Shown in pieces: positions 14,139-30,936 of a stretch of DNA of 64,000 nucleotides (within the stretch, counting starts at the first letter, position 1; each line of letters begins with the position of its first letter). Made by a program: the position numbers and the translations under genes. Below the pieces are notes generated by a model that worked only from the letters and a program-made list of their open reading frames with translations, was not told where the DNA came from and did not search any database. The stretch comes from Candidatus Bipolaricaulota bacterium (GTDB lineage Bacteria; Bipolaricaulota; Bipolaricaulia; UBA7950; UBA9294), in NCBI GenBank assembly GCA_026390345.1, contig JAPLGD010000068.1, positions 24,078 to 88,077 of the forward strand, given 5' to 3'.

Positions 14139-14300
14139 GCGCCCTCCTGCGTTTCCGTGAATCTCCTTCGATCGTACCGCGCGCGGCCGAGAGACGAAAG
14201 GCACCTGCACTCGGAGCTCGCTTGATCGCCCGCCGGTCTTCGCGTAAGGTCCCCAAACCAACGCTGGGGATGCAAGCAGGCGTCGTTCGAAAGGGGAGCC

Positions 14301-15032: not shown

Positions 15033-15111
15033 CCATAGGCCGCCCCCGGGGTCGGGTATACTCCGCCCATCTTGGTTCCGTCGCCCATTCTCGGCGACGC
15101 AAGGGGGCACG

Positions 15112-16602
15112 TTGGACACGCTGACCACGTATCGAAGCATCGTGGGCGACATGGGCAAGCTCGCCTCCGCCCTGAGTCTCCTCGGATGGGACCAGCAGAC
15201 GCACATGCCGACCAAGGGCGTCGCGATCCGTTCTCAGGTCACGGGAAAGCTCAGCAAGATGCAGTTTGAGCTCCTCACCTCCGACGAGCTCGGGACATGC
15301 CTCGCGGAGCTCCGGACCGCCAACGGACTCAGCGAGCTCGAGCGGGCGAGCGTCCGCCGCGTCGGGAAGGACCACGATCGGAACCGCGCGATCCCCGCGG
15401 AGCTGATCGAGGAGCAGAGCATCGCGCAGACCCAAGCGCAGACCGCGTGGATCGCGGCCCGGCAGGCCTCCGACTTCGGAGCCTTCCGGCCGCACCTCGA
15501 GAAAATGGTGGGCTACGCGCGCAAGTTCGCCGAGTACTACGGCTACGAAGAACACCCCTACGACGCCCTGCTGGAGGACTATGAGCCTGGCATGACGTGC
15601 CGGAAGCTCAAGGCCATCATCGAGCCCCTACGCGCCGAACTCGTCCCGTTCCTCCGACAACTGATGGAGAAGGGAACGCGACCGGACGCGTCGCTCCTCG
15701 ACGGCACGTTCGACGCAGAAACGCAGCGCCGTCTCTGCCGACGCGCCCTCGAGGTCATTCGCTACGATTTCGAGGCTGGGGGTCTCGCCGACGTCGCTCA
15801 CCCGTTCACGACGACGATCGGTCCGGGCGACGTCCGCATCACGAACCGCTACCTCGAGGCGCACCTCCTGTCGAGCGTGTTTGGTGCCCTCCACGAGGGC
15901 GGGCACGCGCTCTACAACCAGGGAATGCCAGAGGAGTTGTACGCCCTCGGCATCGCTCGCGGGTCGTCGAACGGGATCCACGAATCCCAGTCGCGGATGA
16001 TCGAGAATCAGGTCGGACGGAGCCTGCCGTTCTGGACCTTCTTCCAGCCCGTTCTCGCCGAGTTCTTCCCCCAGTTCAAGAAGGCGAAAGCGAAGGACCT
16101 GTACGCCGCCGCGAACGTCGTTTCCCCGTCGCTCATCCGCGTTGAAGCGGACGAGGTTACGTATAACTTCCACATCATGGTGCGGTTCGAGATTGAGGCG
16201 GGACTCCTCGACGGCTCGATCGACGTCGCCGACCTGCCACGGCTGTGGAATGACGCGATGAAGCGCTACCTCGGCGTGGTTCCCCCGAACGACGCACAGG
16301 GAGTCCTCCAGGACGTGCACTGGTCGATGGGCTACTTCGGCTACTTCCCGTCGTACATGCTCGGGAACCTCTACGCGGCCCAGATGTTCCGCACCCTCCG
16401 CAAGGAACTCCCGACGCTCGACAAGTCGATCCAGGCCGGCAACTTCGAGCCGCTCCTCGGATGGCTACGCGAGAAGGTCCACCGGTACGGCGCAGCGTAC
16501 GAGCCCCAGGAACTCATGAAGCGGATCACCGGCCACGAACTCGACGGTTCGCACTTCGTCAGCTACGTGACCGAGAAGTACGGGGCGATCTACAGACTCT
16601 AG
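15112..16602 (+). CDS. Carboxypeptidase Taq-like (M32) metallopeptidase
   Basis: HEGGHALY and HESQS zinc motifs, plus DQQTHMP near the N-terminus. A TTG at 15112 is preceded by GGGGG. The upstream part of the tracked ORF overlaps the previous gene. Confidence 0.85.
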   Translation: MDTLTTYRSIVGDMGKLASALSLLGWDQQTHMPTKGVAIRSQVTGKLSKMQFELLTSDELGTCLAELRTANGLSELERASVRRVGKDHDRNRAIPAELIEEQSIAQTQAQTAWIAARQASDFGAFRPHLEKMVGYARKFAEYYGYEEHPYDALLEDYEPGMTCRKLKAIIEPLRAELVPFLRQLMEKGTRPDASLLDGTFDAETQRRLCRRALEVIRYDFEAGGLADVAHPFTTTIGPGDVRITNRYLEAHLLSSVFGALHEGGHALYNQGMPEELYALGIARGSSNGIHESQSRMIENQVGRSLPFWTFFQPVLAEFFPQFKKAKAKDLYAAANVVSPSLIRVEADEVTYNFHIMVRFEIEAGLLDGSIDVADLPRLWNDAMKRYLGVVPPNDAQGVLQDVHWSMGYFGYFPSYMLGNLYAAQMFRTLRKELPTLDKSIQAGNFEPLLGWLREKVHRYGAAYEPQELMKRITGHELDGSHFVSYVTEKYGAIYRL

Positions 16603-16613
16603 CGGAGGAACCC

Positions 16614-16640
16614 GGGCCGGGCCCGCTCGGTGCCCGACCC
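16614..16640. terminator. Candidate bidirectional hairpin between convergent genes (GGGCCGGGC-ccgctcggt-GCCCGaCCC)
   Basis: A 9-bp stem with one mismatch, located between the stops at 16602 (+) and 16655 (-). Confidence 0.3.
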
Positions 16641-16654
16641 GGCTCCCTCTGCCT

Positions 16655-17326
16655 CTACTCGTCGTCTTCGCGGGGTGTGCCCCGTCGATGCCCGCGGCGG
16701 TCGGGCCGCCCGCGCGGCGCTCTCTGCGCCTTGCGCGCCGAGATCGGCAACTCCTGCTTCCGCGTCGTCTTCGCCTTCTCTGTGCAGAGCGCCACGAGCG
16801 CGTCGTGAATCGTTTCAAGCTGGTACTCGCGCGTCCTCTGAGTCACGGGGATGAGGTCGACCGTCGCCGCGCCGAGCTGCCTCGCCAGCCGCTCCATCGT
16901 GGCAAGGCATGACACCGCTCCGTTCCCGGAGCCGCCCGCCGCGGCTACACAGATCGTCGGCTTCTCCGCGAGCGCGCTCGCCGCACTCTCCGACTTCGTC
17001 GCTTCGCAGCGACGCAGCCGATCGAAGAACGCCTTGAACGCCTCGCTCGGCTCGCCGAAGTACACCGGGGTGACCCACACGAACGCCTCCGCCTCACCGA
17101 ACATCGCGTGCAGCTCTTCGAAGTCGTCCTCCAATCGGCATTCGTGCTTCGTCTTGCACGGTCCCCAACCGTCGGCGCACACAGCGCACCGCTCGATCAT
17201 GTAGCTCGGCAGGTTGACCACGCGCGCCGGACACCGGCCGTCCACAACCCCCTGCCGTGCCGCTTCTCCGCACGCAGCGGTCAGGCCAGCCTCGTTCGGG
17301 CTAGACGTGATGACAAGAACCTTCAT
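16655..17326 (-). CDS. Iron-sulfur flavoprotein-like / NADPH-dependent FMN reductase family (flavodoxin fold with a compact Cys cluster)
   Basis: MKVLVITSSP ... CAVCADGWGPCKTKHEC (CX2CX6CX5C). An ATGA overlap with the molybdopterin subunit stop at 17323-17326. Confidence 0.7.
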   Translation of the reverse strand: MKVLVITSSPNEAGLTAACGEAARQGVVDGRCPARVVNLPSYMIERCAVCADGWGPCKTKHECRLEDDFEELHAMFGEAEAFVWVTPVYFGEPSEAFKAFFDRLRRCEATKSESAASALAEKPTICVAAAGGSGNGAVSCLATMERLARQLGAATVDLIPVTQRTREYQLETIHDALVALCTEKAKTTRKQELPISARKAQRAPRGRPDRRGHRRGTPREDDE

Positions 17327-19656
17327 CGCTCTCCTTTCGGCCGTCGCTCACACACGAGCGCCTCAAGCACTCGTTCCGGCGTGAACGGCGTCCGCCGCAG
17401 GCGGATGCCTACGGCGTCGTAGATCGCGTTCGCGATCGTAGGGATGGGCCCGTTGATCCCGATCTCACCCACCGACTTGGCGCCCATCGGTCCCGTCGGC
17501 TCGTACGATCCCACCAGGATCACGTCAAGGTTCGGAACGTCGAGGGCCCCGGGAATCTTGTAGTCGAAGAGAGACGGGTTTCGCACCCGCCCCGTCGAGC
17601 TGAACAGCATCTCCTCGCTGAGAGCGTAGCCGATCCCGTTGACGATCGCCCCCTCCATCTGACCCTCCGCCATGAGGGGGTTGATCGCGACTCCGCAGTC
17701 CACGGCGGCCACGTAGTGTACGACCTTCACCCGCCCCGTCTCCACGTCCACGGCGACCTCAGCAAAGTTGGCCAGGAACGGCGGCGGGGACTCACTGGGG
17801 ACGCACGACGCCGTCGCCGCGATCTGGAACTGGTCCGACGAGTACATCGCTCGCCGACACACCTCGGCCAGCGAAACCCGCGCCCCCGCAGGGCCGACGG
17901 CGTGCTCGCCGACCAGCCGCAGGCTCTCGACGGACGCCTTCAGCATTGGCGCGGCCACCGACAGGATCTGGCCGCGCACTCCTTCCGCGGCCCGCTGGAC
18001 GGCCATCCCCGACACGTACGTCGTCGACGACGCGTACGCGCCGACGTCGAACGGGGTCAAGTCCGTGTCGGAGGACGTCACGATCATGCGCGACGCGGGA
18101 ACGCCGAGCACCTCGGCGGCAATCTGCGCGAGGATCGTGTCCGACCCGGTTCCGATATCGGTCGCCCCGACAAGCAGGTTGAACGACCCATCCTCGTTCA
18201 TCTTGATCGTCGCCGCGGCCATGTCGATCTGCGGGATTCCCGAGCCCTGCATCATGATCGACATTCCGACGCCGTGAACCCACGGCCCCTCGCGGCGCCG
18301 GGCTCCGCGCTTCTCACGCCAGCCGATTCGCTCGGCGCCGACCGCGATGCACCGCTCGAGCTCGCAGCTCTTGACCGTCTGCGAAACGCCCTCGCGTCCC
18401 TCTCCGAGCTTTTCGAAAATCGGCGATGTCTCTCCTACCCGGATGTGGTTTCGACGCCGCAACTCGATCGGGTCGAGGCCGAGGCGTTCCGAGAGCTCGT
18501 CCATCGCCGTCTCGAGCGGGAAGTACCCTTGCGTCGCACCGTAGCCGCGGTAGGCTCCCGGAACCGGGAGGTTCGTGTACACCGCCTGCCCGTAGAAGTG
18601 GGCGTTCTTCGCCTTGTTGTAGAGCGGCAGTGTCTTCGAACCGGTGTTGGCGAGCACGGTCAAGCCGTGCGCTCCGTATGCCCCCGTGTTCGACGTCGCC
18701 TCCATCTCGATCGCGTGGAGCACGCCGTCCTTGTTCGCACCAAGCTTCACGCGAACGCGCATCGGATGGCGGGTCCGCGCCGCGACGAACTCCTCCGCGC
18801 GCGACAGGCTGAGGAACGCGGCGCGTCCCGTCCGGAGCGTCACCCAGCCCGCGATGTCCTCGAGCAGGACCTCTTGCTTCGTGCCGAATCCCCCGCCGAC
18901 GCGCGGCTTGATCACCCGGATCCGTTGGATCGGGATCCCTAGCGTCTGTGCGACGATGCGCCGAACGTGGAACGGGACCTGCGTGCTCGTCCGTAGAACA
19001 AGCCGATCGTCGCTGTCGAGGTAGCTGTGGACGACGTGGGTCTCGATCGGCGTGTGTTGGGCGTACTGCGTCTCGCACGTCGTCTCCACGACCACGTCCG
19101 ACTCTACGAATCCACGCTCGACGTCGCCCACGTCAATGTCCACATCGGCGACGATGTTTCGTGCGGCTTCGTAAATCCCCGTCGAGTCCCCCTCGTCGTG
19201 AATGACGGGGGCCCCCTCGGCTCTCGCCTCGTCGATCGAGAGCACCGCCGGCAGTTCTTCGTACGTGACCCGGATCGCCCGCAAGGCCTCCTCCGCCGCC
19301 TCCTCTGTCTCCGCCGCCACCGCCGCGACGCGATCACCAACGAAGCGCACCTTCGTGTCGAACATCCGCGCGTCGTAGGGCGACGGTTCCGGATAGCCCT
19401 GGCCCGCCGTCGTGTGCCTTGTCGAAGGCGTGTTCTCGTACGTCAGGATCGCGATCACACCGGGGATCTGCGCCGCCGCGGAGCTGTCGATTCGGACGAT
19501 GCGGGCGTGCGCGTGAGGGCTCCCAAGGATCTTGACGTAGAGCACGTCCGACAGGTCAACGTCAGCGACGAATTTCGGTTTCCCTTTGACGAGACCGACG
19601 CCGTCGACCTTGCGGACGCTTTGCCCGACGACGACAAACGACTCTCGCTCAGCCAT
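17323..19656 (-). CDS. Xanthine dehydrogenase/aldehyde oxidase family molybdopterin-binding large subunit (CoxL-like, 777 aa)
   Basis: Typical N-terminal a/b-hammerhead (VRKVDGVGLVKGKPKFVADV) and molybdopterin-binding domains. It overlaps the 2Fe-2S gene. Confidence 0.9.
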   Translation of the reverse strand: MAERESFVVVGQSVRKVDGVGLVKGKPKFVADVDLSDVLYVKILGSPHAHARIVRIDSSAAAQIPGVIAILTYENTPSTRHTTAGQGYPEPSPYDARMFDTKVRFVGDRVAAVAAETEEAAEEALRAIRVTYEELPAVLSIDEARAEGAPVIHDEGDSTGIYEAARNIVADVDIDVGDVERGFVESDVVVETTCETQYAQHTPIETHVVHSYLDSDDRLVLRTSTQVPFHVRRIVAQTLGIPIQRIRVIKPRVGGGFGTKQEVLLEDIAGWVTLRTGRAAFLSLSRAEEFVAARTRHPMRVRVKLGANKDGVLHAIEMEATSNTGAYGAHGLTVLANTGSKTLPLYNKAKNAHFYGQAVYTNLPVPGAYRGYGATQGYFPLETAMDELSERLGLDPIELRRRNHIRVGETSPIFEKLGEGREGVSQTVKSCELERCIAVGAERIGWREKRGARRREGPWVHGVGMSIMMQGSGIPQIDMAAATIKMNEDGSFNLLVGATDIGTGSDTILAQIAAEVLGVPASRMIVTSSDTDLTPFDVGAYASSTTYVSGMAVQRAAEGVRGQILSVAAPMLKASVESLRLVGEHAVGPAGARVSLAEVCRRAMYSSDQFQIAATASCVPSESPPPFLANFAEVAVDVETGRVKVVHYVAAVDCGVAINPLMAEGQMEGAIVNGIGYALSEEMLFSSTGRVRNPSLFDYKIPGALDVPNLDVILVGSYEPTGPMGAKSVGEIGINGPIPTIANAIYDAVGIRLRRTPFTPERVLEALVCERRPKGER

Positions 19657-20125
19657 TCCGTCCGCTCCTCATCCGCTCGGCCGCCGTTTGGACCGCCCGG
19701 ATCTGCTTCACGTATCCGGTGCAGCGACACAGATTGCCCGAGATCGCCTCGCGGATCTCCCCCTCGCTCGGGGTCGGGTTCCGAGACAGGAGGTCGTACG
19801 CGGAGAGAACCATGCCCGGCGTGCAGTACCCGCACTGCACCGCGCCTTCGTCGAGGAACGCCTCCTGGATCGGGTGGAGCGCGTCGCCGTTCGCAAGCCC
19901 TTCGATCGTCAGGATCGCTCTCTTCTCCGCCTTCGCCGCCAGGACGAGGCACGCGTTGACCGCGCGGCCGTCGAGGAGCACGGTGCACGCTCCGCAATCC
20001 CCCGACCCGCACCCCTTCTTGACGCCTACGTGCCCCGCGCGGCGTAGGACCTCGAGCAGCGTGTCTCCCGGGTTCGCATCGACGACGCGGCGCGCGCCGT
20101 TGATCGTCAGTTCGAGGCTCGTCAT
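19649..20125 (-). CDS. (2Fe-2S)-binding small subunit of a molybdenum hydroxylase (CoxS-like)
   Basis: CGSGDCGACTV and QCGYCTPG, CRCTGY motifs. Confidence 0.9.
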   Translation of the reverse strand: MTSLELTINGARRVVDANPGDTLLEVLRRAGHVGVKKGCGSGDCGACTVLLDGRAVNACLVLAAKAEKRAILTIEGLANGDALHPIQEAFLDEGAVQCGYCTPGMVLSAYDLLSRNPTPSEGEIREAISGNLCRCTGYVKQIRAVQTAAERMRSGRNG

Positions 20126-20988
20126 AGCGCCCCCTCCATCCCGTCACGCGTCAGCCGCTCAAAGCAACGCCGCACGCCGACCTCGGTCAACGTCCTGCGG
20201 TACAACTCCGACGCGCGGCGGTCGTCGCGAGCGTCGACGCCGCGCGCCGCGAGCGACGCCGCGTCGCCGATCGTCGCCGACGACGGACGCTTCCCCTCGA
20301 GGGCAGCTTCCACGTCTGGGAGCCTCCGCGCCAGGGCCGGTGTTCCGCCCACGGCGACTCGCACGCGGCTGCAGGTGCCCTTCGCAACCTCCACAACGCA
20401 GGCGCAATTCAGAAGCCCGACGTCGAACCCTGTTCGCGCGAACTTCTCGAACGCGCCTCGTGTTGAGGGCGCCCGCTTGGGCAGCCGGATCCCCGTGACG
20501 AGCGGAGCGACGTTCTGCGATCGTGAGGCGTAGAAGTCCGCGGCCGGAACCGAGCGCGCCGCACCGTCGAAGACCTCAACGTCCGCGTCGAGGACCAAGA
20601 GAGCAAGAACCACGTCCGACCAGGGATGGGCGCGCGCCACCGCGCCGCCGATCGTCGCCACGTTCCGCTGCAGCGGAGACGCGACCTGCCGAAGCACGTC
20701 ACGGAGGAAGCCGCCTGCATAGGCGGCGATCTCCGGGGCCTCAAGAATCCGCGAGAGGGTCGTCCCGGCACTGATCGCGAGTCCCGCGCGGCCTGCGCTA
20801 ACCCCTGCTCGCCCGAGCCGCGAGACGTCGATCAGCGTCGTCACCGTCTCCGGCGTGTACAGAATGAGATCGATTCCTCCGCCGAGGAATCGCGTCGTCT
20901 CCGGGTCGGCCGTCCGAAGCCTCCACGCCTCGTCCGCCGTGGTCGGCCGGGCGATCGACTGGATGCGGTGAAGTCCCACGTCTTCCAC
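20122..20988 (-). CDS. FAD-binding subunit of a molybdenum hydroxylase (CoxM-like)
   Basis: LGGGIDLIL, ATIGGAV and related motifs. The start is GTG at 20988 or 20979. The tracked ORF extends into upstream Arg-rich read-through. Overlaps the next gene by 4 nt. Confidence 0.8.
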   Translation of the reverse strand: MEDVGLHRIQSIARPTTADEAWRLRTADPETTRFLGGGIDLILYTPETVTTLIDVSRLGRAGVSAGRAGLAISAGTTLSRILEAPEIAAYAGGFLRDVLRQVASPLQRNVATIGGAVARAHPWSDVVLALLVLDADVEVFDGAARSVPAADFYASRSQNVAPLVTGIRLPKRAPSTRGAFEKFARTGFDVGLLNCACVVEVAKGTCSRVRVAVGGTPALARRLPDVEAALEGKRPSSATIGDAASLAARGVDARDDRRASELYRRTLTEVGVRRCFERLTRDGMEGAL

Positions 20989-21303
20989 GTCTCCTTCGCG
21001 TTCTTCGCGTCGATTATTGCCATCGCCTCGGGCCGAAACAAGCGGACCCGGCTTCCCGTGTTTGCACGCCGTGGTGCCTCGCATCGCCCATCTTGTCGTA
21101 TCCTCCATGTGATGCTATCCTGTGACTACGCATAGCGGCCTCCTGTCCGGAACGCCGTGCCTCATCCGGCGGGCGGAGCAAGGCTACAGAAGCTGCGGCT
21201 CCGCCCGCCCTCCGTTTCCCGGCCGTATCGTTGTCTGACCGTCCGACAGCCGCTATCCTCTCCCCCGCAGGTTGCAGAAAGCGCCGACCGGAACGGAGGT
21301 CCG

Positions 21304-22629
21304 ATGAAACAAGCGATCGAGAACGCTGTCGTGTGGGACGGGGAGCGGGTGATCGAGCGCGGATCAATCCGGATCGAGGACGGTCTGATCGCCGCGGTCG
21401 GCCCGACCGCAGGCAGTCGTTTCGCCGCAGACGAGACGATCGACGCCGAGGGAAGGCTCGCAATCCCCGGGTTCATCAACGCCCACACCCACCTCTACAG
21501 CAGCCTGGCGCGAGGGCTGTCCCTCCCCGGCTACGCGCCGCAGTCGTTTACCCAGATCCTAGAGCAGCTCTGGTGGCGACTCGACAAGGCTTTCGACGAC
21601 TCCGCCGTAACGACGAGCGCCCTCGTCGGCGCGATGGAGGCGGCCCGCTGCGGGGTGACAACCCTCGTCGACCACCACGCGAGCCCGAACGCGATTCCCG
21701 GCTCGCTCGACCGCGTGCGCGACGCGGTGTGCCGCCGAGTCGGCCTTCGCGCCGCTCTGTGCTACGAGACGTCCGATCGGGACGGAGACGAGCGTGCCCT
21801 CCTCGGGATCCAAGAGAACGCCCGTTTCCTCGCGACCCTCGACCCGCAGGATTCGCTCTGCTCGGGGCTCTTCGGGCTTCATGCCTCGCTGACGCTCGGC
21901 GACGGAACGCTCCGAGCCGTCGCGGCGAAGTTCCCGGACGGCGCGGGGATCCACATCCACGTCGCCGAGGGTCCGGAGGACGAGCCGCAGTGCGTGAAGC
22001 GCCACGGCGTCCGCATCGTTCCGCGGCTCGACGGGTTCGGCCTTCTCCGCCCGCGCTCGATCCTGGCCCACTGCCTGCACGTGGACGCCGACGAGAAGGA
22101 CTTGATCGCCAAGCGGGACGCGATCGTCGTCCACAACCCGCGCTCCAACATGAACAACGCCGTGGGCACCTTCGACCTTGACGGATTCCTCGACCGCGGC
22201 ATCCTGGCGGGGCTCGGGACGGACGGACTCGGCGCGAACATGCTCGCTGAGCTCTTCACGGCCGGACTCGCCCAGCGCCAGGCGAGGCAGGACGCTCTCG
22301 CCGGAGCATTCCCGCAGCTCGACCGGCTTCTCTTCGAGAATAACCCTGCGATCGCCGAGCGCGTCTTCGGAGTCCGGACCGGGCGGCTCGTTCCCGGGGC
22401 TCCCGCCGACATTGCCGTCCTCGACTACGCGGCCCCGACGCCGCTTGCCGAAGGCAACGTTCTCGGGCACCTCCTCTTCGGGGTTGCCGTGCACGCGCTC
22501 CGCGTGAGCGACCTGTTCGTAGGGGGCCATCCGATCCTGCGGAAGGGCCTGTTCGTCGACCTCGACGAGCGCGAGGAGTACGCGCACGCTCGAGAGGAAG
22601 CGCGCCGCCTGTGGAAGCGAATCGCATGA
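21304..22629 (+). CDS. ssnA: SsnA-like putative aminohydrolase (amidohydrolase superfamily)
   Basis: GFINAHTHLYSSLARG ... LWWRLDKAFD ... VDHHASP ... HNPRSNMNNAVG ... GLGTDG are collinear with E. coli SsnA. ATG at 21304 is preceded by GGAGG. Confidence 0.85.
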   Translation: MKQAIENAVVWDGERVIERGSIRIEDGLIAAVGPTAGSRFAADETIDAEGRLAIPGFINAHTHLYSSLARGLSLPGYAPQSFTQILEQLWWRLDKAFDDSAVTTSALVGAMEAARCGVTTLVDHHASPNAIPGSLDRVRDAVCRRVGLRAALCYETSDRDGDERALLGIQENARFLATLDPQDSLCSGLFGLHASLTLGDGTLRAVAAKFPDGAGIHIHVAEGPEDEPQCVKRHGVRIVPRLDGFGLLRPRSILAHCLHVDADEKDLIAKRDAIVVHNPRSNMNNAVGTFDLDGFLDRGILAGLGTDGLGANMLAELFTAGLAQRQARQDALAGAFPQLDRLLFENNPAIAERVFGVRTGRLVPGAPADIAVLDYAAPTPLAEGNVLGHLLFGVAVHALRVSDLFVGGHPILRKGLFVDLDEREEYAHAREEARRLWKRIA

Positions 22630-22639
22630 GGAGGCGACC

Positions 22640-25600
22640 GTGAGCCACGCCATGCGTCCGACGCCCTTCGAGCCGCTCCTTCGCCGAGTTCTCGACGAGT
22701 ACCGCGAGCGAGGGAGCATCCTTGGGATCCCCGGCGGCCTCTTCTACCGACCGCAGGAGTCCGCCCCGTATGCGACGAAGATCTTCGGCTCTCCGCTCGC
22801 GACCCCGATCGGTCCGGCCGCCGGTCCGCACACCCAGCTCGCGGGGAACATCGTCTCGGCGTGGCTGTGCGGCGGACGGTTCATCGAGCTGAAGACAGTC
22901 CAGATCATGGACGAGCTCGATATCCCGCGCCCGTGCATCGACGCCGCCGACGAGGGGTACAACGTCGAGTGGTCGCAGGAGCTCCGCCTGGAGGAGTCCG
23001 CCCGCGAATACGCGTCGGCGTGGGCCCTCGTCCACATCCTCCACCGGCTCCTCGGCCTCGAAAGGCGGGTCCCCCTCGGCACAGTCTTCAACATGAGCGT
23101 TGGCTACAACCTGGAGGGAATCCGCAGCTCCCGCATGCAACGGTTCATGGACTCCCTCGAGGACGCTTCGGAACTCCTCGACCCGATCCGCAAGAGGCTT
23201 CGGACCCGCTTCCCACGCTTCGCTGACGTCGACATTCCGAACCGCATCGCGAACAGCGTCACGCTCTCGACGATGCACGGCTGCCCGCCCGACGAGATCG
23301 AGCGGATCGCGACCCATCTCCTCGCAGAGCGCGGCCTGCACACGACCGTCAAGCTGAACCCAACGCTCCTCGGTAAGGAGCGCCTGGCCCAGATCCTCCA
23401 CAGCCATCTTGGGTTTGTGGAGATCGAGGTTCCCGACGCCGCCTTCGCCCACGACCTCCCCTACGACCGAGCCCGCGAGCTGATCGCGTCGCTCCGGCGC
23501 GCCGCCGATCGATGCGGCCGGACGTTCGGCGTAAAGCTGTCGAACACCCTTGAGGTGAGAAACCATCGCGGCGTCCTCGCGGGAACCGAGATGTACCTGT
23601 CGGGCCGGCCCCTCTACCCAATCACGCTCGACCTCTTCCTACGGTTGCGGCGTGAGTTCCCAGGCCTTCCCGTGTCGTACTCCGCCGGCGCCAACGCCGA
23701 CAACGTCGCGTCGCTCCTCGCCGCCGGCGTATGCCCCGTGACGGTCGCCTCCGACCTTCTGAAGCCCGGAGGCTACGGCCGACTCGCCCAGTATTTGGAA
23801 CGCATCTCCGACGCCATGGCCGCGGCAGGCGCCGCGTCGCTCGCGGCGTTTGCCGCCGACGCCGATCGCACCCTGGAGCGCGTCGCGGCCGAGGCTCTCT
23901 TCGACCCTCGCCACACGAAGGGCTACGTCCCGGCGGAGCTTCCCAAAGTGGCATCGCCGCTGACGGCGTTCGATTGCATCGCGGCCCCGTGCGTCGAGGC
24001 GTGCGCGGTCTGCCAAGATGTGCCCGAGTACGTTGGCTACCTCGAGGACGGCGACGCGGACGCCGCGCTCACGGCGATTCTCCGCCGGAACCCGCTCCCC
24101 GGCATCACCGGTCACATCTGCACGCACCGTTGCCAGACCCGCTGCACGAGGACGAACGTCGACCGCGCTGTCGGGATTCGCGACCTAAAGCGGTTCGCCC
24201 TCGAGCGCGGACAAGCCCGGCTCACTCCCGCTGCATCCACGGGGCACCGGGTCGCGGTGATCGGCGCCGGACCCTCCGGCCTCGCCGCCGCCTTCCACCT
24301 CGCGCTCGCGGGCGTCGCCGTTACGGTCTTCGAGGCAAAGGATCGAGCCGGCGGAATGCCGGCACTCGCCCCGGCGTTCCGACTCCCACCGAACATCGTC
24401 ACCGCCGACGTGGCACGCATCGAGGCGCTCGGCGTCGAGATCCGCACGAGCGCGCCGATCAAGGCGCCGCCGAGCGACCTCCTCGCGCAGGGCTTCGCCG
24501 CCGTCTACGTCGCCACCGGCTTCCCAAGAGACTCGATGCCCGAGGACGTCGCTGGGATCGATGCCGAGGGAGTGTACGGGGCCGTCGACTTCCTTGACCG
24601 CGTCGCCCACGAGCGGCCGCCGGCCCTCGGCACCTCGATCGTCGTCATTGGCGGCGGGAACACGGCGATGGACGCTGCGCGAACGGCATCTCGCCTCACC
24701 CACCACCCGTGCACCGTCGCCTACCGCCGGACGCGGGCCGAGATGCCGGCCGACGCCGAAGAGGTCGCCCTCCTGCTCGAGGAGGGCAACGTCCTCCTCG
24801 AACTCGTCTCTCCTGTGAAGGTCGTCGCCGAACGCGGTCGCGTCGTGTCCGTCGAGTGCGTTCGCAACCACCTCGGCGAGCCCGGAGCCGACGGGCGTCG
24901 CCGCCCCGAACCGACCCCGGGGAGCAATCTGCGGTTGTCGGCCGACGCCGTCATCGTCGCCACCGGCCAGCGCTCCGACCGCGATCTCCTGCGCTCCTGG
25001 AGGCTCGAGACCCGACCGGACGGAGGCGTCGTCGTGCACGAGGCAACCGGCCGGGCGGCACCGGACGCGATCTACGCCGGCGGCGATCTGGCCCGCGGGC
25101 CGGCGATCGCCGTGGCAGCGGCCGCCGACGGGCGGCGCGCTGCGGAGGCGATCCTGGCCGAGCTTGGAATCCCGCTCCGCGCCCCGGCAGATCGCGCGAC
25201 GCCGAGCGCGTCCCGCGATGTCGAGGAGATCCGCCGCCGCAGAGCCCGGAGAGACAATCGCCAGGAGCCGTCTCGGCTTCCCATCGGACGACGCGGCGGG
25301 TTTGAGCTTGTGACGTCCGGCTTCACCGAGGCCCAAGCCTCCTCGGAAGCGTCGCGCTGCCTCCAGTGCGCGACCATCTGTGAGAAGTGCGTCCAGGTCT
25401 GCCCCAACCGCGCCAACGTCCCGTACGAGATCGAGCCGGTCGACGTCGAGGTCCCCGTCGTGTCCCTCGCGGACGGCGCGGTCGCAGGCCACGAGCGCGT
25501 CTCGATCCATCAGCCACGTCAGATCCTTCACATCGACGACTTGTGCAACGAGTGCGGCAACTGCACGACGTTCTGCGTCCACGAGGGGAAGCCGCACGCC

Positions 25601-25924
25601 GAGAAGCCCCGGCTCTTCTGGGACCGCGCCGCGTTCGACGCCACCGGACAGAACGCCCTGTTCGTCGACGGCACGGCGCTCTACGCGAAGACCGCGGACG
25701 GTGAGTCGATTCGCGTGCTCCTGACGGAAGACGGATACGCGTACGAGGACGCGAACCTCACGGCCCGGCTGACCCCGGCACTCGCCGTCACCGAGGTCCA
25801 CTCGCGCAGAAGGGGGAAGGGGAACCGCTCTCTGCGCGCCGCCGTCGAGGCTGCGGCTCTATTCCGCGCCTTACGGAAGTCCGCGCCTTTCGTCCTCCCG
25901 GACCAAGAAGAAGGAGCCTCCTGA
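22640..25924 (+). CDS. ygfK: YgfK-like Fe-S/FAD oxidoreductase (putative selenate-reductase subunit family), 1094 aa
   Basis: Motif-by-motif match to E. coli YgfK (MRPTPFEPLL, GPAAGPHTQLA, GGRFIELKTVQI, CIDAADEGYNVEWS, NMSVGYNLEGI, LSTMHGCPP, VKLNPTLLG, LLKPGGY). Also a GltD-like NAD(P)/FAD domain and a C-terminal Cys cluster. GTG start after GAGGAGG. Confidence 0.9.
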   Translation: MSHAMRPTPFEPLLRRVLDEYRERGSILGIPGGLFYRPQESAPYATKIFGSPLATPIGPAAGPHTQLAGNIVSAWLCGGRFIELKTVQIMDELDIPRPCIDAADEGYNVEWSQELRLEESAREYASAWALVHILHRLLGLERRVPLGTVFNMSVGYNLEGIRSSRMQRFMDSLEDASELLDPIRKRLRTRFPRFADVDIPNRIANSVTLSTMHGCPPDEIERIATHLLAERGLHTTVKLNPTLLGKERLAQILHSHLGFVEIEVPDAAFAHDLPYDRARELIASLRRAADRCGRTFGVKLSNTLEVRNHRGVLAGTEMYLSGRPLYPITLDLFLRLRREFPGLPVSYSAGANADNVASLLAAGVCPVTVASDLLKPGGYGRLAQYLERISDAMAAAGAASLAAFAADADRTLERVAAEALFDPRHTKGYVPAELPKVASPLTAFDCIAAPCVEACAVCQDVPEYVGYLEDGDADAALTAILRRNPLPGITGHICTHRCQTRCTRTNVDRAVGIRDLKRFALERGQARLTPAASTGHRVAVIGAGPSGLAAAFHLALAGVAVTVFEAKDRAGGMPALAPAFRLPPNIVTADVARIEALGVEIRTSAPIKAPPSDLLAQGFAAVYVATGFPRDSMPEDVAGIDAEGVYGAVDFLDRVAHERPPALGTSIVVIGGGNTAMDAARTASRLTHHPCTVAYRRTRAEMPADAEEVALLLEEGNVLLELVSPVKVVAERGRVVSVECVRNHLGEPGADGRRRPEPTPGSNLRLSADAVIVATGQRSDRDLLRSWRLETRPDGGVVVHEATGRAAPDAIYAGGDLARGPAIAVAAAADGRRAAEAILAELGIPLRAPADRATPSASRDVEEIRRRRARRDNRQEPSRLPIGRRGGFELVTSGFTEAQASSEASRCLQCATICEKCVQVCPNRANVPYEIEPVDVEVPVVSLADGAVAGHERVSIHQPRQILHIDDLCNECGNCTTFCVHEGKPHAEKPRLFWDRAAFDATGQNALFVDGTALYAKTADGESIRVLLTEDGYAYEDANLTARLTPALAVTEVHSRRRGKGNRSLRAAVEAAALFRALRKSAPFVLPDQEEGAS

Positions 25925-27162
25925 TGGGCCGAATCGCCGCTCTGCGCTGCATCAGCTGCGGGGTCGAGTACAACCCCGCGCGTGTGGACTACACCTGTCC
26001 GTCCTGTGGGCCGCGGCGCGGCACGCTCGAGGTCCTCTACGACTACGACCGGTTGCGCCGAACCCTGAAACCTTCGTCGTTCTCCGAGACCGGGTTCGCC
26101 TCGATGTGGCGCTACGAGGCGCTCCTTCCGATCGAGGACCGCCGGTTCATTCAGCCGCTGCGTGTCGGATGGACGCCCCTCTACGCTTTTCCGGGCCTCG
26201 CGAAGGAGCTTCGGCTGGCCGCATTCTACGTGAAGGACGACGGACAAAACCCCACGGCCTCCTACAAAGACCGCGCGAGCTCGGTCGTCGTCATCAAGGC
26301 CCAGGAGAAGGGGAGGCCGGTCGTCACGTGCGCATCCACGGGGAACGCCGCGTCCTCCCTCTCCGGTTTTGCGGCGTCGACCGACCTCCGGACGATCATC
26401 TTCGTCCCCGAACGCGCCCCGGAAGCCAAGGTGGCCCAGCTTCTGATCTACGGCGCCAAGGTCTTCCTCGTCCGCGGATCCTACGACGTGGCCTATGACC
26501 TTGCCGCGGAGGCGGCCGAGGCGTTCGGGTGGTATAACCGGTCCGCCGCCGTGAACCCGTACCTGGTCGAGGGTAAGAAGACGGGGGCGCTCGAGATCGC
26601 CGAACAGCTCGGGTGGAACCCGCCGGACGTTGTCTTCATCGGCGTCGGGGACGGCTCGGTGATCAGCGGCCTTTGCAAGGGGTTCGACGAGCTCGTTCGC
26701 CTCGGGCTGATCGCCCGTGCCCCGCGCGTGATCGGCGTCCAGGCGGAGGGCTCGGCGCCGATCGCCCGCGCATTCGCCGCGTACCGGGGACGCACCGTCC
26801 CCATCGAGGATGGGGACGCCCACACCGTCGCTGACAGCATCTGCGTCGGCAAGCCTCGGGACATCGTCAAGGCCGTCACCTACGTCGCGCGAAACGGCGG
26901 CGAGTTCGTGACGGTGAGCGACGCCGAGATCCTCGACGCGATCGTGACGTTGGCCCGCAGGACTGGCGTGTTCGCCGAGCCGGCGGGAGCGGCCTCGTAC
27001 GCCGGGCTTCGCAAGCTCGCCGCCGCGGGTACACTGGAGGGGAAGACGGCGGCCGTCGTGGTTTCCGGGAACGGGCTGAAAGACGTGGCCTCGCCGAGGA
27101 CGATCGTCGAATCTCCCATTCCCGTCGAGCCGTCGTTGAAGGAGATCGAGCGGCACCTATGA
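25924..27162 (+). CDS. Threonine-synthase-like fold-type-II PLP enzyme with an N-terminal zinc ribbon
   Basis: CISCG...CPSCG ribbon, and TASYKDRAS, which contains the PLP lysine. ATG overlaps the ygfK TGA by 1 nt (TGATG) and is preceded by AAGGAG. Confidence 0.8.
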   Translation: MGRIAALRCISCGVEYNPARVDYTCPSCGPRRGTLEVLYDYDRLRRTLKPSSFSETGFASMWRYEALLPIEDRRFIQPLRVGWTPLYAFPGLAKELRLAAFYVKDDGQNPTASYKDRASSVVVIKAQEKGRPVVTCASTGNAASSLSGFAASTDLRTIIFVPERAPEAKVAQLLIYGAKVFLVRGSYDVAYDLAAEAAEAFGWYNRSAAVNPYLVEGKKTGALEIAEQLGWNPPDVVFIGVGDGSVISGLCKGFDELVRLGLIARAPRVIGVQAEGSAPIARAFAAYRGRTVPIEDGDAHTVADSICVGKPRDIVKAVTYVARNGGEFVTVSDAEILDAIVTLARRTGVFAEPAGAASYAGLRKLAAAGTLEGKTAAVVVSGNGLKDVASPRTIVESPIPVEPSLKEIERHL

Positions 27163-27665
27163 AGGTCCGATTCACCGTGAACGGTCATGCCGCAACTGTC
27201 GAGGGAGACGCCGAGATGAGGCTCCTCGACGCGCTTCGCGACGTGCTCCATCTCACGGGAACGAAGGAGGGGTGCGGCGAGGGGGAGTGCGGAGCCTGCA
27301 CCGTCCTCCTCGACGGCCTCCCCGTTAACTCGTGCCTCGTCCTCGCCGCTCAGGCGGAGGGACGCGAGGTGCTGACGATCGAGGGGCTCGCCGACGGCCC
27401 GCGGCTGCACCCGATCCAGCAGGCGTTCGTCGACGCCGGCGCGGTACAGTGCGGCTTCTGCACCCCGGGGTTCGTCATGTCGACCTACGCGCTGCTCCGC
27501 GACCACCCGGCGCCGTCCGAAGAGGAGATCCTCACAGCGCTCGAGGGAAACCTGTGCCGCTGCACGGGGTACGTGAGAATCGTCGATGCGGTCAAGCGGG
27601 CGGCCGTGCAGCTGGCCGAGACGCGCCTCGGTGAGGCGCGAGCACGAGCGCGGGAGACCGCATGA
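27159..27665 (+). CDS. (2Fe-2S)-binding molybdenum-hydroxylase small subunit
   Basis: [11 protein letters not shown] and [14 protein letters not shown] motifs. ATGA overlap with the upstream gene. Confidence 0.9.
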
Positions 27666-28261
27666 TCGCAGGCCTCGTCCTCGCCGCTGGACTCGGTCAA
27701 CGGATGGGGGCGATCAAGCCGCTCGTCGACGTGGATGGCGTCCCTTCCCTCGGCCGCGTGCTGGCGACCCTCGACGAGTCAGGAATGCAATTCGTCGCCG
27801 TCGTTCTGGGAAACGATGCCGAGCGAATCCGAAGCGAGGTCGACCTCAGAGGGCGGCTGGTCGTCGTGAACCCGTCGCCCGAGCGCGGGATGGCATCCTC
27901 GCTCGCCCTCGGCCTCGCGGCGCTCCCTGCGGACGCGGAGGGAGTCCTCGTCTTCCACGCCGACATGCCGTTCCTTCGATCCACGACCGTCCGCGCCGTC
28001 CTTCTCGCCGCCGCGGAAGCAGAGATCGCGGCTCCGTCTTGGAACGGGGTTCGCGGGTTCCCGGTGTTCTTCCACCGCCGTCAGTGGGAGGAACTGCGTT
28101 CGACCCTCCACGGCGACGCCGGGGGAAAGAGCTTCATCCGCCGGCATCCCGACCGCCTGCAAACAGTCGAGGTCGAGGATCCGGGTTGCGTTCGGGACAT
28201 CGACCGTCCCGACGATCTCACGCCGCAGAAGGAGACCCCGTGCTGCGCTACGTCCGAGTAG
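27662..28261 (+). CDS. mocA: MobA-like NTP transferase, probably molybdenum cofactor cytidylyltransferase (MocA/YgfJ-like)
   Basis: LVLAAGLGQRMG..KPL N-terminal motif. ATGA overlap with the upstream gene. The gene context is the same as E. coli ygfJ-ygfK. Confidence 0.75.
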   Translation: MIAGLVLAAGLGQRMGAIKPLVDVDGVPSLGRVLATLDESGMQFVAVVLGNDAERIRSEVDLRGRLVVVNPSPERGMASSLALGLAALPADAEGVLVFHADMPFLRSTTVRAVLLAAAEAEIAAPSWNGVRGFPVFFHRRQWEELRSTLHGDAGGKSFIRRHPDRLQTVEVEDPGCVRDIDRPDDLTPQKETPCCATSE

Positions 28262-29082
28262 ACACAGAGGCCGAGCTTCTCGACGCCCTCCGCAAGGACG
28301 GCGCCCAGCTTCTGTCCGGGGGAACGGACCTCCTGGTGAAGATGCGCTCCGGGCTCGTCCGGCCAAAGAGCCTCGTCGACCCCGCTGCCGTTGCCGAGCT
28401 TCGCGGGATCGAAACGGCCGGAGGGGCTTTGCGTATCGGCACCGCAACGCCGCTGAGCGAGATCCTGGCCTCGAAGGAGGTTCGAGAGAGAGCTCCACTG
28501 CTCGTCGACGTCCTCCGCGTCCTCGGATGCGTCCAGATCCGCAACCGCGGCACCCTCGGAGGAAACCTTGCGAATGCGTCGCCGGCCGCCGACAGCGCGA
28601 TCCCTCTCTTGCTCTACGAGGCGAACCTCGAGCTGGCCGGAGGTGACGGCGCACGCAACGTCCCCGTCGGTGGATTCTTCCTCGGACCCGGACGCACGGT
28701 CCTCCAGCACGGCGAGTACATCCGCGCCGTCCGCATCCCCGCCTCGCGGCAGAACTGGATCCCGTTCTTCCACAAGGTGGGCCGCCGGCGCGCTTTGACG
28801 ATCGCCATCGCCAGCATCGGGGGTCTCGCCGCCGTCTCGCAGGGAAGAGCCACCGAAGTCCGCCTCGCGGCCGGGTCGGTGGCACCGATTCCGCTCCGCC
28901 TCAAGTCCGCCGAGGAGTGGCTCGCCGGGCGCGCTCTCGACCGGGAGACGATCCAACACGCCGGGGCGCTAGCCGCCGGCGAGGTCTCCCCGATCGACGA
29001 CGTCCGGGCCACTGCCGCCTACCGACGCGCCGTCACCGGCGACCTCGTCGTGCGCTTCCTCGAGGGCGCCGCAGCCGCCTAG
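28240..29082 (+). CDS. FAD-binding molybdopterin dehydrogenase subunit (YgfM/XdhB-like)
   Basis: LLSGGTDLLVKM and TLGGNLANASPAAD motifs. A GTG at 28240 is preceded by AGGAG and overlaps mocA by 22 nt. The tracked ORF start is upstream read-through. Confidence 0.8.
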   Translation: MLRYVRVDTEAELLDALRKDGAQLLSGGTDLLVKMRSGLVRPKSLVDPAAVAELRGIETAGGALRIGTATPLSEILASKEVRERAPLLVDVLRVLGCVQIRNRGTLGGNLANASPAADSAIPLLLYEANLELAGGDGARNVPVGGFFLGPGRTVLQHGEYIRAVRIPASRQNWIPFFHKVGRRRALTIAIASIGGLAAVSQGRATEVRLAAGSVAPIPLRLKSAEEWLAGRALDRETIQHAGALAAGEVSPIDDVRATAAYRRAVTGDLVVRFLEGAAAA

Positions 29083-29149
29083 ACGCGGGCTCCCCCCTTC
29101 TCTTCCCGTCGCCTCCCGGCTATCCTGGCAGGAAGAAAGGGAGGTCGCC

Positions 29150-29527
29150 ATGTTCAAGCGCCGGCTCGGTCTTGCGCTCGGAGTCCTGAGCTGTCTTCTG
29201 CTCGCCGGATGCGAGTTCTTCCAGCAGCCGCCCGTCGCGTCGTTCGTCGTCCACTACAGCGTTGTCAGCACCGACCCGATGGTCGTCGACCTCGACGCGT
29301 CCGCCTCGTCTGATCCGAACGGAGATGTGATCACGGCGTACATGTGGACGTTCGGAGACGACGTCACGATCCTGACTCCGCTGGATACGACGAAAACCGT
29401 GACGGTCCCTGTGCTACGCGTGCGCTATCCTCTCGAGGGTGCGTACCCCGTCCAACTCTTAGTACGGAACGAGTTGGGCGAGACGTCAGCGATCGTCTCA
29501 GGAACCGTAACGCTCCCGCACGAGTGA
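29150..29527 (+). CDS. Lipoprotein with a single PKD domain
   Basis: Signal peptide with an LLAGC lipobox. LDASASSDPNGDVITAYMWTFGD PKD signature. ATG after GGGAGG. Confidence 0.7.
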   Translation: MFKRRLGLALGVLSCLLLAGCEFFQQPPVASFVVHYSVVSTDPMVVDLDASASSDPNGDVITAYMWTFGDDVTILTPLDTTKTVTVPVLRVRYPLEGAYPVQLLVRNELGETSAIVSGTVTLPHE

Positions 29528-29552
29528 CCCGGCCGAGCAACCTGCGCGGGCG

Positions 29553-29981
29553 TTAGGCATCCGGAATGAACCGCTTCGCGTGGTAGATGATGTCGGGGCA
29601 GCGCTTGTAGCCAAGCCCGACGAACGCGGCCTGGGAGATCTCGTTCTCCTCTTCGATCAGGCAGGCGACGATGACGATGCCGAGCTGGCGGAGGCGCGCC
29701 TCAACCTCTCCGACGAGCGCTTTGGCAAGGCCCCGTCGACGGCAATCGGGAGCGACGGCAAGGCGGTTGATCCAGCCTTTTCGGCCGTCGTGGGTGCCGA
29801 AGACGACGCCCGCGATCCGCCCCTCCTCTTCCGCGACGAGGAAGAGCGCCCGGTTGTCTTCAATCTCCCGGGCGACCGACTCCCGTCGGTCCCTCCCCTC
29901 GGCGCGGACGGGGAGCCCCGCCTCGATCCAGAGAGCAATCACGGCGTCGTAGTCCTCGATCTGGAAGTCACGAATGCGCAC
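29553..29981 (-). CDS. GNAT-family N-acetyltransferase
   Basis: RIAGVVFG...RRRGLAKAL acetyl-CoA-binding motif. Confidence 0.85.
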   Translation of the reverse strand: MRIRDFQIEDYDAVIALWIEAGLPVRAEGRDRRESVAREIEDNRALFLVAEEEGRIAGVVFGTHDGRKGWINRLAVAPDCRRRGLAKALVGEVEARLRQLGIVIVACLIEEENEISQAAFVGLGYKRCPDIIYHAKRFIPDA

Positions 29982-30124
29982 GGATCCTCCTTGCGTGGCG
30001 CAGAGCGTACCGCGGGTGCGGCCTCCGTCAACCCCCGCGTCCGGCCGCGAGCGGACACGCCTCCCCGCGAAGCGGGCCGTTCGCCGCCCTTCCCTCGCCG
30101 GGGGAGCATACGATCCGGGCGAGA

Positions 30125-30727
30125 ATGATGAACAGGGGATCTGTCTGCAGTGTGCTCTTGATCGGCCTCGTGGTCGCGTGCGCGAGTAGCGCTGCCGGCG
30201 CGCTCGGACCTGCGCTCGCGTCGATCGGGTTCGGCGTCAGCGTTCCGTACGAACTCCCCGTCGACTGGGCCGCGTCGTTCTCGTTCGTCACGCTCGAGCT
30301 CCTGCTGTCCCCGCACCTCACAACGATGTTCGACCTCGGCACGTACCCGGCAACCTTCCCCGACATCTTCGAGGTCGGTGCGTCCCTCCTCGTCAAGGGC
30401 TGGGTAGGGCCGACGGACGTGTTCGGCGGAGGCGGCATCACGACCCAGTGGACCCGGGTCGGCTCGGCGTGGTCGATTCGGCCGCTCTGGAACCTACGGG
30501 CCGGCTACCAGATCTGGCTCGCGGAGGCCGCGGCGATCCAGCTTCAGTTTCGGGCACTCGAACCCCTCTACCTGAGCGACTGGACGTTCTCCCCGGAGAT
30601 CGCGCTCGGGTTCTGCGTTGGGCTGGGCAGCGCCCGTCCGGCGTCACCCCAGTTCGATCTGGCCTACCTCTGGCTCATCGTCGGACTCGGCGTCGCCGCG
30701 CTCCTTGCCTTTCTGCCGCGACAGTAG
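30125..30727 (+). CDS. Hypothetical secreted protein with a signal peptide (possible lipobox VVAC), alternating beta-strand patterns and a C-terminal hydrophobic helix
   Basis: ATG at 30125. GC3-rich. No recognisable family. Confidence 0.5.
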   Translation: MMNRGSVCSVLLIGLVVACASSAAGALGPALASIGFGVSVPYELPVDWAASFSFVTLELLLSPHLTTMFDLGTYPATFPDIFEVGASLLVKGWVGPTDVFGGGGITTQWTRVGSAWSIRPLWNLRAGYQIWLAEAAAIQLQFRALEPLYLSDWTFSPEIALGFCVGLGSARPASPQFDLAYLWLIVGLGVAALLAFLPRQ

Positions 30728-30765
30728 GGCGCGGCCGCGGACCGTGAGCGGGAGAACCACTCGCC

Positions 30766-30794
30766 TTCACTGACTGGGACTGTTGTGCTATACT
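30766..30794 (+). promoter_or_regulatory. Candidate promoter (TTCACT, 17 nt spacer, TATACT) upstream of the sigma factor gene
   Basis: Hexamers were read from the sequence. They would give a 5' UTR of about 135 nt. Confidence 0.3.
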
Positions 30795-30936
30795 TGGGCA
30801 CGAGATTGACCCTTACTGAGGGGAAGAAGAAGCATCGCAGGTAGGAGCGCATACGCGAAGCCTGATCGGAGGCCGTTGGGGCCGTCCGGTTTCATTTCGA
30901 TAGCACCCCCACTTGGCATGCTGGCCAGGAGGAGCC

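Follow-up and report, generated by a model that had tools for sequence, protein, structure and literature searches.

The closest described relatives of the genes discussed here belong to a reductive route of uric acid degradation that two studies have only recently established for gut bacteria (Li et al. 2025, Liu et al. 2025). In this route the XdhD–YgfM enzyme of Escherichia coli, known as XdhAC or DOPDH in Clostridium, converts urate to 2,8-dioxopurine, YgfK (DOPOR) uses NAD(P)H to reduce 2,8-dioxopurine, SsnA cleaves the ring to form ureidomethyl-hydantoin, and HyuA, YgeW/YqeA (or UacY), YgeY and YgeX then yield pyruvate (bioRxiv 10.1101/2025.05.19.654654; 10.1101/2025.04.24.650524). Here we describe ten genes at positions 16655-29082 of a 64,000-nucleotide stretch of DNA (the window; positions 24,078 to 88,077 of contig JAPLGD010000068.1, assembly GCA_026390345.1) from Candidatus Bipolaricaulota bacterium, which by homology and gene neighbourhood probably encode this phylum's version of the upper half of the reductive uric-acid/purine (2,8-dioxopurine) route, a reading to which we give a probability of about 0.7. 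An initial annotation had proposed an uncharacterised module for a purine or another heterocycle and had described the E. coli counterpart as a locus of unknown substrate; the purine part of the proposal holds, while the two preprints make the second statement obsolete and place the core of the module in a known pathway. As that pathway is being pursued for urate-lowering probiotics, the locus bears on such work.

The E. coli uricolytic cluster consists of mocA(ygfJ)-ygfK-ssnA-ygfM-xdhD together with ygeW-ygeX-ygeY-hyuA-yqeA, and genes for SsnA, YgfK, an XdhD-like molybdenum (Mo) subunit, a flavin adenine dinucleotide (FAD) subunit and a MocA-like protein are likewise found in one neighbourhood here. 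The arrangement differs, however, in that the genes are split between two divergent operons, the 2Fe-2S domain that is fused to the Mo subunit in E. coli is a separate protein, and two 2Fe-2S and two FAD subunits accompany one Mo subunit. The window also adds an FMN_red protein resembling the iron-sulfur flavoprotein Isf, has a threonine synthase (ThrC)-like enzyme where E. coli has YgeX, and is without yqeB, yqeC, ygeV, hyuA, ygeW, ygeY and yqeA over its 64 kb; ygeV here stands for a YgeV-like sigma-54 regulator.

Two further variants are known. In the clostridial one (XdhAC, UacX and UacY of Clostridium sporogenes and C. difficile) the same pathway logic operates in strict anaerobes, and in Mesoaciditoga a relative of the window locus (L084; labels of this kind denote loci of relatives) has a UacX-like reductase together with the ThrC-like gene and the two sets of small subunits. 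According to the 2025 preprints the DOPDH of clostridia lacks an FAD subunit, makes no use of NAD(P)H and requires selenium, whereas the window has two FAD subunits and a flavoprotein partner, with no yqeB or yqeC nearby (selD was not searched for). In the Chloroflexota-type clusters (Li et al. 2025) SsnA adjoins an enzyme of the xanthine dehydrogenase (XDH) family, and many metagenome loci of this type carry the ThrC-like gene; they differ in having a luciferase-like, putatively F420-dependent reductase instead of YgfK, and their ThrC-like gene is usually paired with a CysK-like protein of about 490 amino acids (aa) rather than with the 2Fe-2S, MocA-like and FAD genes. What is new in the Bipolaricaulota locus is not the core pathway but three conserved extras that the 2025 papers do not describe, namely the ThrC-like enzyme, a second 2Fe-2S/FAD pair and the Isf-like partner; the first of these attracts most interest, as its occurrence extends far past this genome.

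A probable purine-degradation core and its conservation in Bipolaricaulota

The gene identities and the two divergent operons given in the initial annotation were confirmed by Pfam and NCBIfam domain content (Table 1), and three of the proteins carry the pathway assignment. SsnA is 35% identical to E. coli SsnA, YgfK is 40% identical to its E. coli namesake over residues 1-1010 and has its own GltD-like NAD(P)H/FAD module, and both exceed the equivalog cut-offs of their families. The Mo subunit is nearer to E. coli XdhD (42% identity, 595 bits) than to XdhA (35%, 452 bits). It also carries the XdhD-specific Glu606 loop (GEG, with E419 here), which is deleted in XdhA and which in XdhD orients urate for the formation of 2,8-dioxopurine (Li et al. 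2025). It is because YgfK and SsnA pass their cut-offs, and because the Mo subunit is the nearer to XdhD and keeps this loop, that we assign the region to the upper half of the route.

By homology to the characterised enzymes, the Mo enzyme of the minus operon (Mo subunit with copy A of the 2Fe-2S and FAD subunits) would strip the 6-oxo group from urate to give 2,8-dioxopurine, YgfK would reduce the purine core with NAD(P)H, and SsnA would hydrolyse the reduced ring to ureidomethyl-hydantoin, with the MocA-like enzyme providing the cytosine-dinucleotide form of the Mo cofactor. Less certain steps are a final C–N cleavage by the ThrC-like enzyme, which would take the place of YgeX in converting a C3 product with a free amino group (2,3-diaminopropionate or 3-ureidoalanine) to pyruvate, and a link from the Mo enzyme to ferredoxin and/or NAD(P)H through the Cys-rich FMN_red protein and perhaps also the second 2Fe-2S/FAD pair. 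Of the labels first given to these genes, those of the core enzymes hold, whereas 'MocA' and 'YgfM-like' fall below the curated cut-offs. The MocA-like protein, 26% identical to E. coli MocA, scores 121.9 bits against TIGR03310 (cut-off 186.45) and finds its best NCBIfam match in the DVU_1551 family (137 bits, cut-off 315), and the two FAD subunits score 34.9 (A) and 31.7 bits (B) against TIGR03312 (cut-off 241.5). The MobA/MocA-like protein is nevertheless a probable molybdenum-cofactor cytidylyltransferase.

The ten genes travel together across the phylum. Order and orientation are kept at 50-95% protein identity in seven loci (L003, L005, L007, L008, L011, L013 and L031), and it is in metagenome-assembled genomes (MAGs) named Candidatus Bipolaricaulota, Bipolaricaulis or Acetothermia that the ThrC-like and Mo proteins have their nearest relatives; the exact window protein was found only in two Logan assemblies. 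Many MAG records that bear the title 'uncultured Thermotogae bacterium' (L010, L012, L013, L019, L020 and others) and one labelled 'Atribacteria' hold the Bipolaricaulota cluster at 70-93% identity, and these titles are probably labelling artefacts. If the assignment is right, a free-living anaerobic phylum without cultured members has conserved the upper half of the pathway.

The linkage of the two operons, on which the initial annotation had staked its interpretation, also survives comparison, as they are divergent neighbours across Bipolaricaulota. In 13 of 24 loci no Mo operon was at first apparent within the upstream 10 kb, and the idea that half of the relatives do without it was rejected when in L087 and L088 the operon was found just past the 10-kb flank, still as the divergent neighbour. 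In these two loci (L087 1992-8670, L088 1992-8691) genes for an ABC ATPase, two permeases, a Bmp-family binding protein and adenine deaminase lie ahead of FAD_A, 2Fe-2S_A, Mo and FMN_red (we mark the minus-operon and plus-operon copies of the small subunits A and B). This insert of a nucleoside transporter and a deaminase does not occur in the window lineage, and the added genes point to purines. Two ygeW genes, yqeA and adenine deaminase are also found near the cluster in L068, and in a subset of loci (L016-type relatives) hyuA is the seventh gene of the plus operon, directly after FAD_B. The window lacks hyuA, and a small gene (29150-29527) for a 125-aa PKD-domain protein directly follows the plus operon, as in every Bipolaricaulota relative examined; it comes after hyuA wherever relatives carry hyuA.

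The ThrC-like enzyme of SsnA clusters

The ThrC-like gene had been singled out in the initial annotation as an unusual extra, and it proves to be a conserved cluster member far beyond this genome. A scan of genome collections with an alignment of the family returned 196 relatives, of which 80 loci were kept and compared for synteny by tblastn. The gene joins SsnA clusters in MAGs of Bipolaricaulota, Thermotogota and Synergistota and on unassigned metagenome contigs; SsnA and YgfK precede it in 33 of the 49 informative loci, and 2Fe-2S, MocA and FAD genes follow it in 54 of 65. It adjoins SsnA in company with any of three reductases, YgfK, a UacX-like protein or the F420-type luciferase-like protein. 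Mesoaciditoga (Thermotogota) has the order YgeY-YgeW-HyuA-SsnA-UacX-like-ThrC-like-FeS-MocA-FAD-FAD-FeS-Mo, a MAG labelled Fraserbacteria has YgfK-SsnA-ThrC-like-M20-CysK-like...YqeA-YgeW-YgeW, and Synergistota have YgeY-like-ThrC-like-CysK-like-amidohydrolase-TRAP transporter-YgeY-YgeW. Another MAG has FAD-FeS-Mo-serine dehydratase-luciferase-like reductase-SsnA-ThrC-like, and a hypersaline clade of Bipolaricaulota has ThrC-like-FeS-MocA-FAD-HyuA near adenine deaminase, two YgeW genes and YqeA. We consider it very probable, on this recurrent company, that the ThrC-like enzyme is a component of the pathway.

An independent metagenome sample was centred on SsnA; since it retains the 80 loci with the greatest similarity to the window SsnA, it is not unbiased. 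Among its 50 loci of at least 8 kb the ThrC-like gene occurs in 12, YgeX in one and both in none; the CysK-like protein of about 490 aa is present in 13, usually adjoining the ThrC-like gene. Because YgeX is almost always absent from clusters with the ThrC-like gene, the latter probably replaces it. YgeX is likewise a fold-type-II pyridoxal phosphate (PLP) enzyme (PF00291) and holds an equivalent place among ygeW, yqeA and ygeY; the two proteins are related only at the level of the superfamily (NF006058 53 bits, cut-off 276; 24.6% identity over 122 residues), and their functional equivalence is putative. The likeliest role of the ThrC-like enzyme, to which we give about even odds, is to act as a functional substitute for YgeX on the first C3 intermediate with a free amino group (2,3-diaminopropionate or 3-ureidoalanine).

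The ~490-aa protein that stands beside the ThrC-like gene in SsnA clusters outside Bipolaricaulota is weakly similar to CysK and SbnA and is a second uncharacterised member of PF00291. In L065 a gene for an Fe-S L-serine dehydratase (6188-7567) separates the Mo subunit gene from those for the luciferase-like reductase, SsnA and the ThrC-like enzyme, which hints at a serine intermediate in that variant.

A literature search found no paper that links ssnA clusters with a threonine-synthase-like gene or that describes this Bipolaricaulota locus, and neither preprint mentions the ThrC-like gene or these phyla (bioRxiv 10.1101/2025.05.19.654654; 10.1101/2025.04.24.650524). Li et al. (2025) colour gene neighbourhoods by PF00291 as 'YgeX', a scheme that would merge YgeX and ThrC-like enzymes. 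In the environmental SsnA clusters the usual PF00291 neighbour is the ThrC-like enzyme and not YgeX, and many proteins automatically named 'threonine synthase' are probably enzymes of purine catabolism.

The protein itself is 36-40% identical to solved threonine synthases and shares their PLP lysine motif. Five positions separate them: T, N, S, R and N (T88, N154, S155, R160 and N188 in Thermus thermophilus numbering) are invariant in the five solved enzymes from Aquifex, Bacillus, Mycobacterium, Thermus and Arabidopsis (structures 2ZSJ, 6CGQ, 2D1F, 1UIM and 1E5X), and are replaced here by A142, A208, A209, L214 and D243. In the Thermus enzyme the residues at these positions hold the phosphate of O-phosphohomoserine. 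No family member examined departs from the A/A/A/L/D pattern by more than conservative changes, giving the signature K-A-[TASC]-[GA]-[TLM]-D in place of the canonical KTNSRN, and almost all of the 150 nearest representatives of 50%-identity clusters have the non-canonical pattern. The single KTNSRN representative, a Zn-ribbon relative, scores 337 bits against the threonine synthase model TIGR00260, compared with 214 bits for the window protein, which also falls below the cut-off of NF006050 (294.9 against 303 bits).

Electron-transfer subunits and alternative readings

That two FAD and two 2Fe-2S subunits share one Mo subunit, as first proposed, is borne out, since the Mo subunit is present in a single copy in the whole 64 kb. 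The 2Fe-2S copies are 57% identical to each other and the FAD copies 30%; FAD_B is canonical (FAD_binding_5 150 bits; 33% identical to E. coli XdhB) and FAD_A is divergent (87 bits). In a neighbour-joining tree all 2Fe-2S copies located after the ThrC-like gene, those of Mesoaciditoga included, group in one clade, and the copies that precede the Mo gene group separately in a clade of their own; because of this separation we regard the B pair as an old, maintained lineage and not a recent duplicate. The pair flanks mocA and persists in loci with no Mo gene within 10 kb. Mesoaciditoga and the unrelated metagenome locus L147 (FAD-FeS-Mo-FAD) likewise have two FAD-type genes around a lone Mo gene. 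The B pair may form a second electron branch of the same Mo enzyme, may be the partner of an unlinked Mo subunit, or may supply the ring reductase with electrons.

The FMN_red protein is a candidate Isf-like electron partner of the Mo enzyme. Its gene comes after the Mo gene in L003, L005, L087 and L088 as in the window, and five orthologues share seven invariant cysteines, including C47-x2-C50-x6-C57-x5-C63; a search for sequence matches in the PDB at E≤0.01 gave none. The analogy is with Isf of methanogens, which combines a flavodoxin-like FMN_red fold with a compact four-Cys motif, placed near residue 47 in the window protein. The spacing of that motif is Cx2Cx2Cx4-7C in Isf and differs from the Cx2Cx6Cx5C found here. 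A second comparison, again an analogy only, is with 4-hydroxybenzoyl-CoA reductase, a member of the XDH family that dehydroxylates reductively and hence requires a reducing partner. The physiological electron donor of clostridial DOPDH is explicitly stated to be unknown in the 2025 preprints, and since this is so, we regard the additional FAD, 2Fe-2S and flavoprotein genes as concrete candidates for such a donor.

We put forward tentatively, as a joint proposal that we hold to be clearly less probable than its opposite, that the ThrC-like family is a new PLP enzyme of anaerobic purine catabolism and that five or six components (Mo, two 2Fe-2S, two FAD and the Isf-like protein) make up the Mo enzyme complex. 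If this is true, the ThrC-like enzyme replaces YgeX in most environmental lineages, possibly with a different chemistry, such as the direct elimination of urea from 3-ureidoalanine or the exchange of the beta substituent for water to give serine. The two electron branches of the complex would then link urate dehydroxylation to ferredoxin and NAD(P)H or, alternatively, would couple the oxidative hydroxylation of hypoxanthine or xanthine to reductive 6-dehydroxylation, and either arrangement would answer the question of the physiological donor of DOPDH.

Several observations weigh against the reading of the locus as a reductive uric-acid cluster or against its parts, and one concerns the Mo subunit, which has its best NCBIfam match, 708 bits, with the XdhD model TIGR03313 (cut-off 1101.9) and scores almost the same, 704 bits, with the XdhA_XDHase model NF043082. 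As both scores lie below cut-off the assignment is not airtight, and the subunit could be a xanthine dehydrogenase, solely or additionally. The minus operon might then be an ordinary xanthine dehydrogenase that converts hypoxanthine and xanthine to urate downstream of adenine deaminase, with DOPDH formed by a Mo subunit encoded elsewhere and the orphan 2Fe-2S_B and FAD_B. The operon of L087 and L088, which starts with a nucleoside transporter and adenine deaminase that would feed it hypoxanthine, fits this proposal, as does the lack of a Mo gene beside the B pair around mocA. We nevertheless think it unlikely, given the clear preference of the Mo subunit for E. coli XdhD in direct comparison, the retained Glu606 loop, and the finding of a single Mo gene in the 64 kb as well as in the Mesoaciditoga locus, whose 21 kb include both small-subunit sets. 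A further difficulty lies with selenium and with the remaining pathway genes. The gut-bacterial pathway is selenium-dependent, and all gut strains that have it carry yqeBC and selD (2025 preprints). No homologue of yqeB or yqeC, in agreement with the initial annotation, nor of hyuA, ygeW, ygeX, ygeY or yqeA was found in the 64 kb at E≤1e-3, selD not having been searched for, and a yqeB-like gene is present in just one of the 80 related loci. XDH-family enzymes and amidohydrolases act on many heterocycles, and one might suppose that the cluster degrades nicotinate, a pterin or another N-heterocycle instead of purines. This we consider very improbable, as YgfK and SsnA match at equivalog level enzymes shown to act on 2,8-dioxopurine, and the neighbours in relatives include adenine deaminase, a Bmp nucleoside transporter, HyuA, YgeW and YqeA.

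The extras invite doubts of their own. The B pair could belong to no Mo enzyme and instead channel electrons from NAD(P)H into the ring reductase (YgfK or UacX), in analogy to PyrK of class 1B dihydroorotate dehydrogenase; it is encoded in the reductase operon and not in the Mo operon, and in Mesoaciditoga it accompanies a UacX-like reductase that has no NAD(P)H domain of its own, UacX being an enzyme that needs an unknown donor (Li et al. 2025). However, a Mo-cofactor gene is wedged between the two genes of the pair wherever the conserved order described above is kept (54 of 65 loci), YgfK already possesses its GltD-like module, and the pair persists in L066-L076, where no reductase gene lies within 10 kb, so that we rate this role slightly below the already unlikely xanthine dehydrogenase. 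For the ThrC-like gene the obvious alternative is a housekeeping threonine synthase embedded by chance in an operon of a compact genome. The protein exceeds the TIGR00260 cut-off (167.1 bits), NCBI and JGI both annotate it as threonine synthase, and a Foldseek search with its AlphaFold model (pLDDT 75) matches the threonine synthase fold best, a result that is not discriminating. At about 75% identity it ranks with the best conserved members of the cluster. Its relatives in Elusimicrobia, the nearest outgroup, bear the signature KATGTD and sit among housekeeping-looking genes, and in L085 YgeX lies directly beside the ThrC-like gene, which speaks against a simple one-for-one replacement. On the other side, the fold is that of threonine synthase but the protein has an N-terminal Zn ribbon and a purine-catabolic setting, and no thrA or thrB homologue was found in the window or in any of about 85 loci (~1.2 Mb). 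The linkage to SsnA, HyuA, YgeW and YgeY outlasts many independent rearrangements across lineages, the replacement of the five positions is family-wide, and there are known cases, MetM among them, of ThrC homologues that bear the name threonine synthase wrongly. A chance-embedded threonine synthase is thus improbable, more so than either alternative for the electron-transfer genes. We do not count the active-site argument alone as proof, because the Elusimicrobia control is ambiguous. In that group (L093 6881-9254, and L090-L092) the KATGTD relatives lie beside or near a gene for a protein of about 366 aa with an amino-acid-kinase fold, and this context may not be neutral, because the carbamate kinase YqeA shares that fold.

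Layout of the locus and neighbouring genes

The window has a GC content of about 67%, and the ten genes form two compact operons (Table 1). The initial annotation had described overlaps of 1-4 nt throughout; five junctions fit this description, whereas ssnA and ygfK are separated by a 10-nt spacer, the Mo and 2Fe-2S_A genes overlap by 8 nt, and mocA and FAD_B overlap by 22 nt, with FAD_B starting at GTG 28240 according to an independent gene call on identical metagenome contigs. The start of SsnA is ATG 21304, preceded by a GGAGG ribosome-binding site, and not GTG 21157. For FAD_A the open reading frame extends to 21108, and the most likely start is the GTG at 20988, judged from the lengths of relatives (282-288 aa) and the GGAG before it.

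Table 1. Features of the probable purine locus in the window, with the recurrent PLP protein of related loci
Feature	Position	Strand	Domain content, scores and remarks
FMN_red flavoprotein, 223 aa	16655-17326	minus	Pfam FMN_red 74.8 bits; last gene of minus operon
Mo subunit, XdhD/DOPDH type (predicted), 777 aa	17323-19656	minus	Ald_Xan_dh_C + MoCoBD_1 + MoCoBD_2
CoxS/XdhC-like double [2Fe-2S] subunit, copy A, 158 aa	19649-20125	minus	Fer2 + Fer2_2
CoxM/XdhB-like FAD subunit, copy A, ~288 aa	20122-20988	minus	FAD_binding_5 87 bits + CO_deh_flav_C; first gene of minus operon
Divergent intergenic region, 315 bp	20989-21303	no strand	Alignment with L007, L008, L011
SsnA amidohydrolase, 441 aa	21304-22629	plus	NF005540 457.5 bits, cut-off 444
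YgfK (DOPOR) Fe-S flavoprotein, 1094 aa	22640-25924	plus	TIGR03315 913.6 bits, cut-off 835.3
ThrC-like fold-type-II PLP enzyme, 412 aa, N-terminal Zn ribbon	25924-27162	plus	PALP 249.6 bits
CoxS/XdhC-like double [2Fe-2S] subunit, copy B, 168 aa	27159-27665	plus	Fer2 + Fer2_2
MobA/MocA-like nucleotidyltransferase, 199 aa	27662-28261	plus	NTP_transf_3 126 bits
CoxM/XdhB-like FAD subunit, copy B, 280 aa	28240-29082	plus	FAD_binding_5 150 bits + CO_deh_flav_C; last gene of plus operon
~490-aa PLP protein	L062 12469-13944; L074 11367-12836; L080 2661-4151; L082 4522-6012; L085 2874-4334; many of L103-L172

The divergent intergenic region is a possible control region, to which promoter and operator elements can be provisionally assigned. 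It contains blocks conserved with close relatives, a GC-rich hairpin GGCGGGCGGAGC...GCTCCGCCCGCC (~21165-21215), a near-palindrome TGTCTGAccgTCCGACA (~21234-21250) and a putative -35 TTGTCG / -10 TATCCT pair (~21094-21122). An Rfam scan of positions 14000-32000 (E≤1) returned no riboswitch or leader family, the lone match being a chance miRNA.

Elsewhere in the window, a gene of the A_deaminase family (adenosine/adenine deaminase; 57104-58147) lies 28 kb from the cluster and could supply purines to the pathway. On the minus strand at 5459-7816, a beta-eliminating lyase of the tryptophanase/tyrosine phenol-lyase family adjoins an EamA transporter.

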